Source of the DNA: Candidatus Poribacteria bacterium
Lineage (GTDB): Bacteria; Poribacteria; WGA-4E; UBA9662
DNA length: 48,077 nucleotides
Assembly: GCA_036339735.1 (NCBI GenBank)
Contig: JAYZAL010000027.1
Location: 1 to 48,077 of the forward strand
Direction of reading: 5' to 3'
The notes beneath the pieces were generated by a model. That model saw nothing but the letters and a program-made list of their open reading frames with translations, ran no database searches and was not told where the DNA came from. The first letter of the stretch is position 1, and the number at the start of each line of letters is the position of its first letter. Below are positions 26,557 to 32,238 of this stretch, piece by piece. The translations under genes and the position numbers were made by a program.

Positions 26557-27987
26557 TCAATTAATGACAATCCAATCAAGCCTTTGATCACTCCACTCGA
26601 AAGTTTCCAGTGGTCCAAATTTCAGATTGATAGTCAAACTTTTGGGCGTTGGTGACACATTAAATTGGTTGAAATCCCTCACAACTACGTAAGTGTGCTC
26701 CCCATCCTGAATGTTTTGGCAAGCTACAATAAAATCAGCTAGGTTTTTGGTCGGCTTACCGTTGATTTCTAATATTACGATTTTTGAATTTCCACTCCGG
26801 TCTCGTCGACCAACTTGTGAAAAACTACTTCCCGCTTCAGAAAAAGACATGTAGATGCCGTCGATATCGACATAGAGTAGGTGACGCAGTTGAGGTGTGA
26901 TTTTATGAAAAATGGCACCGCCAAATCGAACGAATTTACGAACTTTCTGTTTTTCTAAATCATCAACTAAAACTTCAATCGGTACCAGTTTGCCATTTCT
27001 ATAAACGTCTAATTTGACTGTTTGATCAACATGTTGGTCTAGTATCTCGTCAAATTGATATAGGTCATCCCGAATGAGTATATCATTAATACGGTAAATT
27101 ATATCGGAAGCCCGTAGACGATCAACGCCGGTCGATAATGGTATGATTGACTCGATTTGAATAACTCGCGGGGTTCCAGTGGCTGGTCGTCCAATTTCCT
27201 TTCGACAAGATTCAGGCAAACGAAAGTGTCGAATAGCCTCACCAATCGAGATGAGTTCTAAATCTACCCCAATTTCACCACGCTGAATAGGCTGAATCTG
27301 CTGAAGTTTCAATAATGCTGATTTAAGATAGTCAATTGGTAATTCAAAACTAGAGGTGTCAGTACCCCTGGCATGAATAGCAACTACTTCGCCACTAGTA
27401 TTCCAAACTGGGCTGCCACTAGAGCCTCCAGTACGATCAAAAGTAGTATGTAAATAACTAGAATGTCGGTCGCCTTTGTCGACGTTTAAGTTAGCGACAT
27501 TCCCGTACTTAATGGAATATTCCTCTTTTTCGTTGTTTCCGATTAATAATAAATCTTCACCAATAGATAAATTACGCCAAGATCCTAGCGAAACTGACTT
27601 CATATCGAAAAGTACTGTCTCTGGGTCAATTTGGTAAAATCCAAAATCATGTGTTGGGTCGTAATACAGCAAACGGGCTTGCGTAAAACTACCATCATGA
27701 AAATTGATTTTGACGTAAGAAGGGCTACTTCCAGTCACATGTTGGTTAGTAGCAATAATTCCCCTTTCTGAATCAATAATGAATCCAGTTGCAAAACTAA
27801 TACCCTTAGATTCAAGTCCAAAAACAATTTCTGATGCTGTCTCTATATTGACCACCATTGGTTTGTACTCTTCAATATGATGTGACCAATCGTAAGCAAC
27901 TAAGTGTAGCTCAAAAAAAAGATTGATTAACAACCCAAGCAACCAAACTTGAGTATGGAATGGGCGATTTCTAAGGTTTATAAACAC
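26557..27987 (-). CDS. Secreted trypsin-like serine protease with PDZ domain(s), Nma111/DEG7-like
   Basis: Catalytic triad TNQH, HDFG, GGSSGSP; downstream PDZ (DIIYRIND...V.L.V.R.G); hydrophobic N-terminus. Confidence 0.88.
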   Translation of the reverse strand: MFINLRNRPFHTQVWLLGLLINLFFELHLVAYDWSHHIEEYKPMVVNIETASEIVFGLESKGISFATGFIIDSERGIIATNQHVTGSSPSYVKINFHDGSFTQARLLYYDPTHDFGFYQIDPETVLFDMKSVSLGSWRNLSIGEDLLLIGNNEKEEYSIKYGNVANLNVDKGDRHSSYLHTTFDRTGGSSGSPVWNTSGEVVAIHARGTDTSSFELPIDYLKSALLKLQQIQPIQRGEIGVDLELISIGEAIRHFRLPESCRKEIGRPATGTPRVIQIESIIPLSTGVDRLRASDIIYRINDILIRDDLYQFDEILDQHVDQTVKLDVYRNGKLVPIEVLVDDLEKQKVRKFVRFGGAIFHKITPQLRHLLYVDIDGIYMSFSEAGSSFSQVGRRDRSGNSKIVILEINGKPTKNLADFIVACQNIQDGEHTYVVVRDFNQFNVSPTPKSLTINLKFGPLETFEWSDQRLDWIVIN

Positions 27988-28164
27988 TTGCTTCTTCCTC
28001 TGTACTTATCATAGATTAATATATTCTAATTGTATCTCAGTTAGCACTTCGGTTCGCCTGTAAGTTTCAAATGTAATGTTTAATTCTTACGCAATTCGAA
28101 GATGGTAATTTAGTCAGTAAAAACCATTTATAGCAAAAAAAACGCTAAAAGTAAGTTGTTGAGA

Positions 28165-28180
28165 TGGCATGTCTATTGCT
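28165..28180 (+). promoter_or_regulatory. Sigma-54 (-24/-12) promoter
   Basis: TGGCATGTCTATTGCT matches TGGCAY-N5-TTGCW with exact GG-N10-GC spacing; A-tracts lie upstream. Predicted start ~28191. Confidence 0.75.
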
Positions 28181-28190
28181 CATACCGCTG

Positions 28191-28300
28191 TACGCTTAGG
28201 TTACTCCTTGAGTGATAGTCAGGGTTTCAGAGATGGTTTTGATCAGTAATCTCTCCTTACTGTTGTTATCCAGCCGTCCTGAAGCCTTGACTTCTTTGCT
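28191..28300 (+). ncRNA. Putative sigma-54-dependent sRNA (two hairpins with CUCC-containing tips)
   Basis: Hairpin 1: UUACUC-CUU-GAGUGA (28201-28215). Hairpin 2: 14 bp (28217-30/28279-92) + 7 bp (28232-38/28272-78) + 6 bp (28244-49/28257-62) with loop UCUCUCC, followed by UCUUU. Four G-U pairs in the two lower helices favour the + strand. Confidence 0.6.
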
Positions 28301-28759
28301 GTAGAAATTTACCAAATTAGCTAGACGTGAGCAGAATGTGAATTGTCTTTTTACCAATCTTAGACTCGTGATAGTCCGGAGGGTGAACTCATTTCTCCGT
28401 GCCTTTTGCTCGAAAAATAGTATTGTGTTTAACAGAGTAGTTTGTTAATATCCATTCGAGGTTAACGATACGTCGTTGAACGGCTAAAGGCATCTCACGA
28501 GATTCCCGAATTCATGACCACTTCTTATTCTTACAGAAAAACATTCAGACCACAGAATAGTATTTAGTTTTGATTCAATACAGGCTGCGACCGGTGGTAA
28601 ACCCAATCTGAAAATAACATTTAATCTGGTAAGATTGCTAGTATCACTCCGATTGAGGATAACAATACTACGTTGTAAACCGATCGGAATTTGGGTAGGG
28701 ATTCTGTGTTCCCGGAATCTGCTTGCTTACCATCAGCTTCTTCAATATTTTAATTCATT

Positions 28760-28781
28760 TTTGTATAGAATTTGTATAGAA
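28760..28781. repeat. 11-bp tandem repeat just upstream of the PEPCK gene
   Basis: TTTGTATAGAA twice. Confidence 0.85.
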
Positions 28782-28800
28782 ATAATTCAATAATTAAGCC

Positions 28801-31800
28801 ATGCATTCCTCTAATACTTTATTAACTCGAATCGGGTTTGATACCGAAATGAGTACTTCTGTCGTTCCTAAATTGGACATCATCGAATTTATCAATATGC
28901 AACTTGATGTCCTTGGTCAGCCGATCTTTGGTTGTCGTTCTGAGTACCCGTTATTGCAGGCTAGCCAAACGATGATGGCACGATACCGAGCCAAAGAAAA
29001 ACTACGAGATAACTTACAATCTCCAGTTGATCAACGTATTCAGATTTGGCTAAATTCTTATCTAGGAGATAAAGCTCCTCAGTTGCCGTCTCAGAATTTT
29101 GAATTAAGCCAACATGGTATTGCACGTAGTTTGTCCCTGCCACCTAATGGCGATGAATTTCACAGTTCCATTATCTCTAGTTACAGAGTTAACAATGGAG
29201 TACTTCATAATCCGATCAATGACCGACGAACGACAGCCGGTAGTTTTCACGTAGCTGAAGGTGGATTACCAATCCCTCAAGATAAAAAATCTGTTCCACT
29301 GGATACTTTTTCTCGACTCCTGTCAATTGCTTTACAACCACCCGAAGAGGTTATGGAGTTACCATTAACTGCGAACCAAGACAAGTCAGCATGTGCATGG
29401 GTCTCTTTATTATTGAGACCCGTGGTCTGCCCAGAAGTGAACGGATTTGTTCGCGAAAAAAGTATGGAAATTCGCTTTTTTGCTCCAGGTAATCTTGTAA
29501 GTAACCTAGATTTTGTAGAAAGTATTTTTGGTAATGCGGGTGATCCATACCTTTTAGAGAACGATGCAGGTCTAGATATTGATCACTGGAGTGGACACAC
29601 AGGTTGCGTGATCCTAGCACCTCACCTTGATTCAATCACAAAAGAATCAGTAGGATTGCCACACTTTTCATCTGCTTCCCCCAGACAACGCAAAGACGGT
29701 ATGTGTTGGACCCAAAAAGACGAAAAGTATAACGATGGTTCTCCTTTCAAATTAACGGCTCGGAATTCTGATGGCGTAATTATCACTATAATCTCCGATA
29801 ATTATTTTGGATACTGTAAAAAAGAAGTCAAAACGCAAATAAGTTTCGCTTGTAACCTGATGGGGTTATCGGAGGAAGAACACGCTGGTGGTACTTTGGC
29901 TTTTCCTAGTTATGATTTAGGAGAAGACTTTCGATTAAACTCGAAAATCTTTCCTGAAGCTAATCACAAAATTAAAACAGTAATTGACCATTTAGGTTCG
30001 CGTATCAAAGTGCAGAAAGAAGGCCATGCTATCGACCAATACTATCCAGATGTTATTTACGTGCCTGAAAATTCTGTTTTTAGACTCAACAATCGTAGTA
30101 TTTCCTGGAAAGACCCCGACGACTCATCTATTCAGCAAAAGATTAAGTTGTTAGCAAATAAAGTTTACTTATTACCTTCGGGCTATAAGGTACAGTTGTC
30201 AAAATCGGCTAATCAACCACTTGGTTCATGGAAGTTAATTGGTACACGTGCTCAACCCTGTATGGCTCATAAACCATGTACTGTTTCGGGAGGTGGCAAA
30301 TCAGAGATCTCAAAATCGATTGCTGATGCAATAATCCATGCCCCATTTTATGTGAGCAATTTATCGGACAGTTTGGATGCTGTTGAAAAAGTATTAAGCC
30401 ACAACTACCAAAACCGATTTAAAAATCAAGACCGAAATCAGGACCAACGTTCAATATTAGATCAAGACCGTTCTCTAGGTTCGGTAATTCAGTTGTTAAC
30501 ACCTTCAGATTCATACACAGATCAGCATAATGCTTTTATTGAGTCAATTCCGACCGAAACTAAAGAATTAGTTCTACTTTTGAAGCGACTTTACAAACCA
30601 ACTTGGGGACAAGACTGGAAACAACACTTTGGTGTGACAATGATTAACGGTGTTCCAGGACATGAACTCCGTTATCAAGGAAGATTAGTTGCCACAAATT
30701 ATCTTAGAGTAGGTTATGAAACTGATAAATCTTGGAGAATCTTCCGTCTTCGAAAGGACTTCTCTCCAGCTCAAAAAATTCAGACGGGGGATGATATTAC
30801 AGCCTCCATTTTAGTACCAAGAAATTGGTTGACTGTTGAATTCGGAGAGATAGAGAACCCATCAGTCAAATTAGTTCACAATTGTGAATATAGGCTATTT
30901 CAAAGGCCTGACGATGCTATCATTGCCGGTTATGATCATCAAACCGAACATGACCTATCGCGTTCCAACAATTTTCTTGTTAATTACGAGCCAATCCCAC
31001 AGGTACAAGCTGAAGAGATTATAGATGATGTCGTTCATTTTGATGAGTTTACCGAACCAATGAAAAGATTCATTCAAAAAGTTGGTCAGAATATATCTAG
31101 CGAATCTTATTTTTGCTGTTCATCCTACCCGAGAGTTATTGCAGGCAACCCCTCAAAGAACCCACGTTACTTACAAAATCGGCCTGATCTGGATAACCCT
31201 CGTGATCAGTATGTGGCTGAGATGGGATTGCGACTTTTCCGACACCTAACCTTAGATGATCCCATTCACACACCAGTTGATGTGGTATGTCCAGGAAGAC
31301 GAAACAATCCACCAGAAGAAAGCGTTCGCTGTTTAGCTGTCTTCAACCCAATCCATTATTTGCCACTGCCTGAAGCTTTTATTGAATTCATTTCATCCAT
31401 GACTGGGAAAAGTCCTTCCACTACTGGTGCTGGAAGCGAGGGTGCTTTAACAAAAGGGCCCTTTAATGCTTTGCTTCCAATTCATGATTTAAACGCAGCA
31501 CTATTGTCTTATATTATAAGTGGTTATAATCCGTTCGTTACGGCCTCAGGTTATGTAGGCCCCAATTTTCGTGTAGACCACGATATTAGTCTATTAGTCC
31601 CAGAAGTTTTTTGTCGAATGGAACGTCATGAAAGAGATCCGGAGTGGTTGATTAAAAATCGAATGCTAGAACCTGTCCCCGATTTAGTTTATCAGAACCG
31701 AACCTTGCCTAGCTCAATTCTTGGCTATCGCATCACTGACGATTTTATTAACCGGTTTATGGCTCGTATATTTAGCCACCCATCTGTTCTATTCACCGAG

Positions 31801-32238
31801 TCTATGCTGAAACCTGAGCTACAAGACCTTGATGCTTTCGCTGAAGGTATTGACAATGTTATGTCAACTCATCGTCGAGTAGCTCAATACTACTTTGAAG
31901 ATAAAAGTATCAAATATGCGGTTCCTCCACTAGTTGCACTACTTCATATTATGAAGGACGGCCACTACCAGAACAAAACGCTCAAGGATTCCGAAATTCG
32001 AGGTTTATTTAAACGCGAATATGTGATAGAAAGCGAATGGTATCAAGAACGCCTTATATCACAGCAAAATCGGGATATTGTGAGAAGTCGGCGGATAGAA
32101 GCATATTTGGGAACGTTGGAATCTACCAGTGAGCTACAAGAGAAAAAGAGCCAGATAGACAAGCAGATTGAGTATTTTCAATCCGGATCATACCTTAAAT
32201 CGTTGGTCGGTACAATTGGGCGAGATCCAGCCCTTTAG
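28801..32238 (+). CDS. PPi-dependent phosphoenolpyruvate carboxykinase (PEP carboxytransphosphorylase type)
   Basis: 1145 aa. GVLHNP..DRRTT.G.FH, SNLDFVESIFGNAGDP, DNYFGYCKKEVKTQIS, HKPCTVSGGGKSEISK (P-loop-like), RLFQRPDDA and TGKSPSTTGAGSEGALTK, as recalled for the Propionibacterium/Entamoeba family. Confidence 0.88.
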   Translation: MHSSNTLLTRIGFDTEMSTSVVPKLDIIEFINMQLDVLGQPIFGCRSEYPLLQASQTMMARYRAKEKLRDNLQSPVDQRIQIWLNSYLGDKAPQLPSQNFELSQHGIARSLSLPPNGDEFHSSIISSYRVNNGVLHNPINDRRTTAGSFHVAEGGLPIPQDKKSVPLDTFSRLLSIALQPPEEVMELPLTANQDKSACAWVSLLLRPVVCPEVNGFVREKSMEIRFFAPGNLVSNLDFVESIFGNAGDPYLLENDAGLDIDHWSGHTGCVILAPHLDSITKESVGLPHFSSASPRQRKDGMCWTQKDEKYNDGSPFKLTARNSDGVIITIISDNYFGYCKKEVKTQISFACNLMGLSEEEHAGGTLAFPSYDLGEDFRLNSKIFPEANHKIKTVIDHLGSRIKVQKEGHAIDQYYPDVIYVPENSVFRLNNRSISWKDPDDSSIQQKIKLLANKVYLLPSGYKVQLSKSANQPLGSWKLIGTRAQPCMAHKPCTVSGGGKSEISKSIADAIIHAPFYVSNLSDSLDAVEKVLSHNYQNRFKNQDRNQDQRSILDQDRSLGSVIQLLTPSDSYTDQHNAFIESIPTETKELVLLLKRLYKPTWGQDWKQHFGVTMINGVPGHELRYQGRLVATNYLRVGYETDKSWRIFRLRKDFSPAQKIQTGDDITASILVPRNWLTVEFGEIENPSVKLVHNCEYRLFQRPDDAIIAGYDHQTEHDLSRSNNFLVNYEPIPQVQAEEIIDDVVHFDEFTEPMKRFIQKVGQNISSESYFCCSSYPRVIAGNPSKNPRYLQNRPDLDNPRDQYVAEMGLRLFRHLTLDDPIHTPVDVVCPGRRNNPPEESVRCLAVFNPIHYLPLPEAFIEFISSMTGKSPSTTGAGSEGALTKGPFNALLPIHDLNAALLSYIISGYNPFVTASGYVGPNFRVDHDISLLVPEVFCRMERHERDPEWLIKNRMLEPVPDLVYQNRTLPSSILGYRITDDFINRFMARIFSHPSVLFTESMLKPELQDLDAFAEGIDNVMSTHRRVAQYYFEDKSIKYAVPPLVALLHIMKDGHYQNKTLKDSEIRGLFKREYVIESEWYQERLISQQNRDIVRSRRIEAYLGTLESTSELQEKKSQIDKQIEYFQSGSYLKSLVGTIGRDPAL

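Follow-up and report, generated by a model that had tools for sequence, protein, structure and literature searches.

A gap of 813 nt separates the gene for a PPi-dependent phosphoenolpyruvate carboxykinase (PEPCK) from the divergent gene for an HtrA-like protease in a marine member of the Poribacteria. Does it contain a regulatory RNA that acts on other mRNAs, or the 5′ leader of the carboxykinase mRNA? Poribacteria are an uncultured phylum, and we addressed this question by computational analysis of a stretch of 48,077 nucleotides (hereafter the window) from a 92%-complete, 4.32-Mb MAG (G000). The gene on the left of the gap (26557–27987, − strand) codes for an HtrA/DegP-like serine protease with Trypsin_2 and PDZ domains, whose matches to the Do-family models of NCBIfam fall under the model cut-offs. 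The gene on the right (28801–32238, + strand), a possible cis target of any RNA made from the gap, codes for a protein of 1145 aa that matches PDB entries 6k31_A and 8e1u_A over nearly the full length with E = 0; a profile search of this protein against Pfam and NCBIfam gave no match. No compositional anomaly was found in the GC profile of the locus. A first-pass annotation of the window had proposed that a sigma-54 promoter in this gap drives an undescribed trans-acting translational repressor, a hairpin RNA that displays anti-Shine-Dalgarno (anti-SD) motifs in its loops.

Positions 28165–28180 of the + strand read TGGCATGTCTATTGCT (TGGCATG-N4-TTGCT), with GG at 28166–28167 and GC at 28178–28179, and show no mismatch to the extended −24/−12 consensus TGGCAYG-N4-TTGCW. 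What had been annotated as a near-consensus promoter about 620 nt from the next coding sequence is an exact consensus match located 621 nt upstream of the CDS start at 28801. The pattern occurs once in the 48-kb window, where shuffled sequences predict 0.05 occurrences (5 of 100 shuffles contained a match), and the entire 4.32-Mb genome contains two such sites, this one included. The promoter is kept in all five sequences of the element that we were able to collect (see below), and its flanks are variable. We conclude that 28165–28180 is very probably a sigma-54 promoter. With C28179 taken as position −12, the usual geometry of such promoters predicts a transcription start at 28190–28192.

The gene for the cognate sigma factor, the presence of which had been suggested as a check, is found in G000, with a Sigma54_DBD match of 186.8 bits within an open frame of 516 aa. 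The genome also codes for eight enhancer-binding proteins (bEBPs) with a Sigma54_activat domain, seven of the receiver type and one of the GAF type; none of the eight genes is located on the contig of the window. Other intergenic sites of the same form, TGGCAT-N5-TTGCT, are found in G000 70 to 150 nt upstream of classic sigma-54 targets, such as the genes for a flagellar rod protein and for a binding protein of the Peripla_BP_5 type, and some precede less typical genes. Two TGGCAT-N5-TTGCT sites lie 3 kb apart on the contig that carries rpoN (C101, 45919–45934 on the − strand and 48804–48819 on the + strand). A gene for a stand-alone response regulator follows one of them, and a DUF4159 gene follows the other; the DUF4159 ribosome-binding site AAGGAGAGA ranks among the best matches to the second loop of the RNA described below. 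On contig C36, a TGGTAT-N5-TTGCT sequence (48493–48508, − strand) precedes the gene for a ClpB-type chaperone by 97 nt; this could be a heat-shock or envelope-stress gene that depends on sigma-54.

RNA read from the promoter's strand folds into a stable structure. The segment 28186–28310 reaches −45.1 kcal/mol on the + strand (z-score of −5.43, with none of 200 shuffles as good), whereas the same stretch on the − strand reaches −26.1 kcal/mol (z-score of −1.39, with 17 of 200 shuffles as good). Because the + strand folds far better than the − strand, the G-U pairs assign the structure to the strand of the promoter, in agreement with the first-pass annotation. The RNA of a divergent congener (G001) has the same architecture and a z-score of −5.66, so that the comparison with dinucleotide-shuffled controls favors a genuine fold in both species. 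When the sequences behind 12 sigma-54-like sites were folded, only 28165–28180 was followed by a stable structure (z-score of −5.9); the 11 other sites, behind which paralogues had been sought, gave values from −1.0 to +1.3.

Two hairpins make up this structure. Hairpin 1 (28200–28216) comprises 7 bp closed by a CUU triloop, GUUACUC/CUU/GAGUGAU in the MFE fold. A small hairpin with CUCCUU at its tip had been expected, and the hairpin is indeed there; its tip needs a qualification, as the CUC of CUCCUU (28204–28209) is paired in this fold and only CUU lies in the loop. An alternative 8-bp fold of the same region exposes UUACUC. The unpaired probability of CUCCUU ranges from 0.37 to 0.57 in this species, and in G001 it is 0.09–0.10 for CUC and 0.93–0.99 for CUU. 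Hairpin 2 (28217–28292) corresponds to the predicted interrupted hairpin of about 27 bp with loop UCUCUCC(UU): we found 31 pairs in four segments and an apical loop UCUCUCC (28250–28256), the unpaired probability of which is approximately 1.0 in both this species and G001. The tail that follows, UCUUUGCUGUA (28293–28303, + strand), is U-rich as claimed, yet it contains no U run. Possibly the RNA ends here, or the tail acts as a weak terminator; a terminator scan of 27900–28900 called no site, and canonical terminators with T runs are present elsewhere in the window. The remainder of the putative leader, 28293–28640, has no unusual fold (z-score of +0.84). Regarding coding potential, the only ATG within the RNA opens 5 codons, and conservation of a 53-aa open reading frame on the − strand (28196–28357) was judged unlikely. 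A 66-aa frame on the + strand of G001 was discarded, as the window has no counterpart of at least 40 aa.

Homologues of the element were found in two other species of the genus, at 94% identity in G002 and 72–73% identity in G001, and on two metagenome contigs (L126 and L127), which together with G000 form the set of five sequences used for covariation analysis. A loose two-motif pattern searched over genome contigs returned only two real relatives (L029 and L031) among the best 80 of 119 matches. A stricter pattern searched over metagenome contigs returned two loci, both close relatives, and the covariation set therefore stayed at five sequences. The promoter, the motif around hairpin 1 UUACUCCUUGAGU and the hairpin 2 apical motif CUCUCCUUACU are invariant in all five, and the stems differ. 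Two G-U pairs of hairpin 1 are replaced by A-U pairs in the congener. An alignment made with the covariance model shows pairing in 98% of 203 cells, and both sides have changed in a compensatory manner in 8 of 41 pairs, a level reached by none of 500 shuffles and compared with 0 to 2 in slid controls; the fit of this alignment was guided by the structure, and it represents in effect two lineages, namely four near-identical sequences (94%, one pair measured) and one divergent sequence. Within these limits, the covariation analysis that had been recommended supports the structure.

Comparison of the intergenic regions of G000 and G001 by blastn revealed a single significant conserved block, 28076–28268 (73% identity, E-value of 8e-32), the other match being the start of the PEPCK gene. 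Hence, the conserved unit consists of an upstream block, the promoter and the hairpins, and excludes the following 470 nt. The tail is not conserved either in the congener, which reads UCUUCUGCUAA. The upstream block itself, which begins the aligned region, spans 43 bp (28076–28118, −115 to −73 relative to the predicted start) and is near-invariant in all five sequences, including the 73%-identical congener. An inverted-repeat search of 28040–28170 detected no dyad symmetry in the region of the block, and a blastn search of the genome found no second copy of it. We consider it a candidate enhancer site for a bEBP or, alternatively, a candidate promoter or operator of the divergent HtrA-like gene. 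Altogether, the module spans 28076–28292 and is composed of the block, the promoter and two hairpins; the hairpins form a real, conserved and strand-specific RNA structure.

The distribution of the RNA is narrow. A covariance model of this RNA matched its own genome once, at the element itself, and a blastn search of the genome yielded no further copy. Within the order, the model matched 3 of 151 genomes, all three from the same genus (g1, one of 17 genera). A search of the whole window against Rfam 15 at the gathering score yielded no match, and relaxing the threshold to E ≤ 10 for 27900–28900 yielded only three eukaryotic snoRNA/lncRNA models at chance level. The RNA is undescribed in this respect, as had been asserted; it represents a new family within a kind of RNA that is familiar from other organisms. 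It is also the first such candidate in Poribacteria, and a literature search combining Poribacteria and small RNA returned no paper on Poribacteria sRNAs among the matches listed.

How could such an RNA act? Ahead of 2965 crudely defined ORF starts of the genome, GGAG, AGGA and GGAGA are strongly enriched, with a maximum at −14 to −8, which indicates that the organism uses a Shine-Dalgarno (SD) sequence of the form AAGGAG(A). This consensus is the complement of the invariant CUCCUU and UCUCUCC motifs. No SSU rRNA gene was found in the MAG, and the anti-SD tail of its 16S rRNA is taken to be the usual CCUCCUU. The UCUCUCC loop with CUCUCCUUACU constitutes an accessible and conserved candidate seed, and CUCCUU is only partly accessible. 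Target prediction did not bear out the expected preference for ribosome-binding sites: duplex energies calculated for 2961 TIRs showed no enrichment over intragenic controls for either loop, the share at or below −14 kcal/mol being 2.7% for loop 2 (2.6% in the controls) and 5.6% for loop 1 (5.3% in the controls). Single matches of 9 to 10 nt at ribosome-binding sites do exist, in a number expected by chance. Searches of the 92%-complete genome yielded Rho but no Hfq and no CsrA.

Given these observations, we assign about an even chance to a trans-acting, Hfq-independent RNA with C/U-rich loops, controlled by sigma-54 and a bEBP and either free-standing or derived from a 5′ UTR. According to this model, one of the eight bEBPs would switch on the promoter at 28165–28180, transcription would start near 28191, and the first 100 nt or so would fold into the two hairpins. 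CUCCUU and the loop UCUCUCC together with UUAC, being complementary to the SD consensus AAGGAG(A), would pair without Hfq with the purine-rich ribosome-binding regions of mRNAs and lower their translation. An RNA of approximately 100–110 nt might be released at the weak end formed by the hairpin and the U-rich tail or, alternatively, be cut from a longer transcript running towards the PEPCK gene. We infer the transcription start, the 3′ end, the trans action and the targets; of the original proposal of an undescribed trans-acting translational repressor, novelty stands and trans repression gains no support from target enrichment. The observations that had been named as refuting it, such as a missing rpoN, a fold on a par with shuffled controls or a lack of conservation, were not made.

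The neighborhood of the element raises the main competing explanation. The order HtrA-like gene, element and PEPCK gene, with the RNA and PEPCK in the same orientation, was observed at all five loci, G001 being counted because two of its contig ends overlap by 55 nt. PPi-PEPCK was found in 3 of 41 relatives and, across the phylum, in 3 of 176 genomes, which all belong to this genus. Within genus g1, the element is inseparable from PEPCK. Hence, the 28165–28180 promoter could be a distal, condition-specific sigma-54 promoter of the PPi-PEPCK gene, and the hairpins, rather than being a free sRNA, a 5′-terminal element of its mRNA that stabilizes the message, causes pausing or attenuation, or is bound by a regulator. 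We regard this explanation as possible, on the unlikely side. Linkage and shared orientation at five of five loci keep it in contention, as do the genus-only distribution common to the RNA and PEPCK and the lack of a canonical terminator after the hairpin. On the other hand, neither conservation nor unusual structure was seen in the 470 nt that separate the hairpin from the PEPCK start, and a partner that recognizes sequence accounts better than a stabilizer hairpin for loops that stay invariant on changing stems. Masking of the PEPCK ribosome-binding site in cis was considered and rejected, as PEPCK lacks an SD-like sequence in all three species; pairing of the RNA to the TIRs of PEPCK and of the HtrA-like gene was no better than for shuffles in either species.

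PEPCK genes from other organisms also speak against a leader. The nearest homologues outside the genus, at 62–64% identity, bear Verrucomicrobiota names, which suggests that PEPCK was acquired horizontally. None of 80 PEPCK loci from other phyla matched the covariance model at E ≤ 10, and a sigma-54-like motif lies upstream of PEPCK in the sense orientation in 1 of the 80 and in the antisense orientation in 2, without enrichment. Hence, PEPCK genes do not generally have this element as a leader. In G001 (contig C79; L006 498–3770), PEPCK aligns in two pieces, residues 1–237 and 322–1145, within a frame of 1092 aa, and approximately 80 residues near positions 240–320 are divergent or missing.

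Available RNA evidence, which comes from assembled contigs of marine metatranscriptomes and gives neither the strand nor the true ends of transcripts, bears on both explanations. In run X1, contigs cover 28222–28482, 28489–28736 and 28792–29244 at a depth of 2 to 6 and are thus almost continuous from within the hairpin into PEPCK, as expected for a leader. The first of these contigs begins at a position compatible with a start at 28190–28192, and it bridges the 3′ end of hairpin 2 and the tail, which implies at least some read-through or the presence of DNA in the library. The X1 data therefore suggest that transcripts, or DNA in the X1 library, partly read through from a point at or before 28222. 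In two other studies, contigs that extend into PEPCK begin at 28633 (X4, records 20 and 21) and 28636 (X3, record 13), which counts against the leader explanation; these positions are a weak hint that the PEPCK mRNA may have a proximal 5′ end of its own on the + strand, created by a promoter or a processing site. They lie about 165 nt before the PEPCK start, and a TTTAAT hexamer is present at 28620–28625. No RNA cover was seen over 28006–28221 in X1 and 28018–28610 in X3/X4; considering the low depth and the reliance on contigs, we did not take these uncovered stretches as evidence. One X1 contig carries 104 other letters in place of 114 nt of the PEPCK leader (28656–28771 of the window), which looks like a strain variant in the non-conserved part of the intergenic region.

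Another explanation would turn the RNA into a ligand or decoy for a protein, its pyrimidine-rich loops binding a protein instead of mRNAs; ribosomal protein S1 and other regulators that bind RNA would be examples. Two motifs that are alike and invariant, together with the lack of target enrichment, agree with such a role, and the partner would have to be a protein other than Hfq and CsrA, since neither was found. We nevertheless deem this quite improbable because no candidate partner emerged and each motif type is present in one copy, whereas known sponges carry many. Finally, a DNA-level feature or chance conservation beside the divergent HtrA promoter, to which the upstream block could belong, is highly improbable in view of the strand-asymmetric folding, the compensatory changes, the exact and invariant 16-nt promoter match and the single-copy nature of the element, which is therefore not a repeat element.

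We thus favor a trans-acting RNA with anti-SD-like loops, on the grounds that the loops stay invariant on stems that differ, that loop 2 is open, that initiation is SD-led in this organism and that Hfq and CsrA were not found. Its independence from PEPCK is supported by the 80 loci of other phyla, none with the RNA and one with a sense motif, and by the contig starts at 28633–28636. Several observations weaken this case, namely the absence of a terminator call, the non-conserved tail and the bridging X1 contig, as well as the narrow distribution that the RNA shares with the adjacent PEPCK in five of five loci. The lack of TIR enrichment, the absence of paralogues behind other sigma-54 sites and the mostly paired CUC of the first motif weigh in the same direction, as does covariation that stems from two lineages in an alignment fitted to the structure.

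In RepG of Helicobacter and RsaE/RoxS of Firmicutes, the seed that targets G-rich or SD sequences is a C/U-rich hairpin loop; these RNAs of Hfq-poor bacteria are unrelated in sequence and are made from sigma-70-type promoters. Qrr, GlmY/GlmZ and GlnZ are Hfq-dependent RNAs of Proteobacteria, and Rfam holds a model of alpha-r14, an RNA of Alphaproteobacteria. Considering function, the closest counterparts of the Poribacteria RNA would be CuKoo/NfeR1, CJnc230 and the Qrr, GlmY/GlmZ and GlnZ group; it belongs to none of them, as no Rfam model matches it. According to a preprint, NfeR1 or “CuKoo” (alpha-r14) of Alphaproteobacteria has a redundant pyrimidine-rich anti-SD motif in each hairpin that pairs with ribosome-binding sites, with CCUCCUCCC in each of three hairpins, an RpoD-type promoter and LsrB and NtrC inputs (bioRxiv 10.1101/2025.11.14.688489). 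In contrast, the Poribacteria RNA has two hairpins with CUCCUU and UCUCUCC, a sigma-54 promoter and a host from another phylum, and no Rfam model for it was found at E ≤ 10. Synthesis of Qrr (LuxO), GlmY/GlmZ (GlrR) and GlnZ is reported to require sigma-54 and an enhancer-binding protein (PMC10162802, PMC3045617, PMC9731577). The Poribacteria RNA likewise stands behind a sigma-54 promoter, and it differs in that it has no Rfam match, that no bEBP gene is on its contig and that Hfq was not found in the genome. CJnc230 (FlmE) of Campylobacter jejuni also depends on RpoN: RNase processing of a longer RpoN-dependent transcript, the flgE mRNA, releases from its 3′ end an RNA of some 98 nt that folds into two stem-loops and bears a CCUU anti-SD motif in a single-stranded linker, and such sRNAs of this species act on ribosome-binding sites (PMC11187230). 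The Poribacteria RNA is instead placed at the 5′ end of its transcript and has its motifs in or next to hairpin loops.

A bolder version of the favored mechanism is that the two loops mimic the CCUCCUU tail of 16S rRNA, so that an RNA fired by a bEBP would broadly compete with ribosomes for AAGGAG(A) sequences; it would be independent of Hfq and would have arisen de novo in a single marine genus, beside the horizontally acquired PPi-PEPCK gene, and would couple a sigma-54 signal to central carbon metabolism. We consider this version unlikely in its entirety. Even so, the position of the element beside a genus-specific PPi-PEPCK raises the question of a link between the signal sensed by a bEBP and PEP/oxaloacetate metabolism. 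Should the element act only as a leader, it would represent an ordinary lineage-specific 5′ UTR element. If it is a bona fide sigma-54-controlled RNA, it would offer the first handle on post-transcriptional control in Poribacteria and an independent case, outside Proteobacteria, of sigma-54 combined with an anti-SD-loop RNA, in a compact module of enhancer block, promoter and RNA of about 100 nt that is suited to heterologous assays. If the bolder version is true, this RNA would be the first regulatory RNA to be described in Poribacteria.
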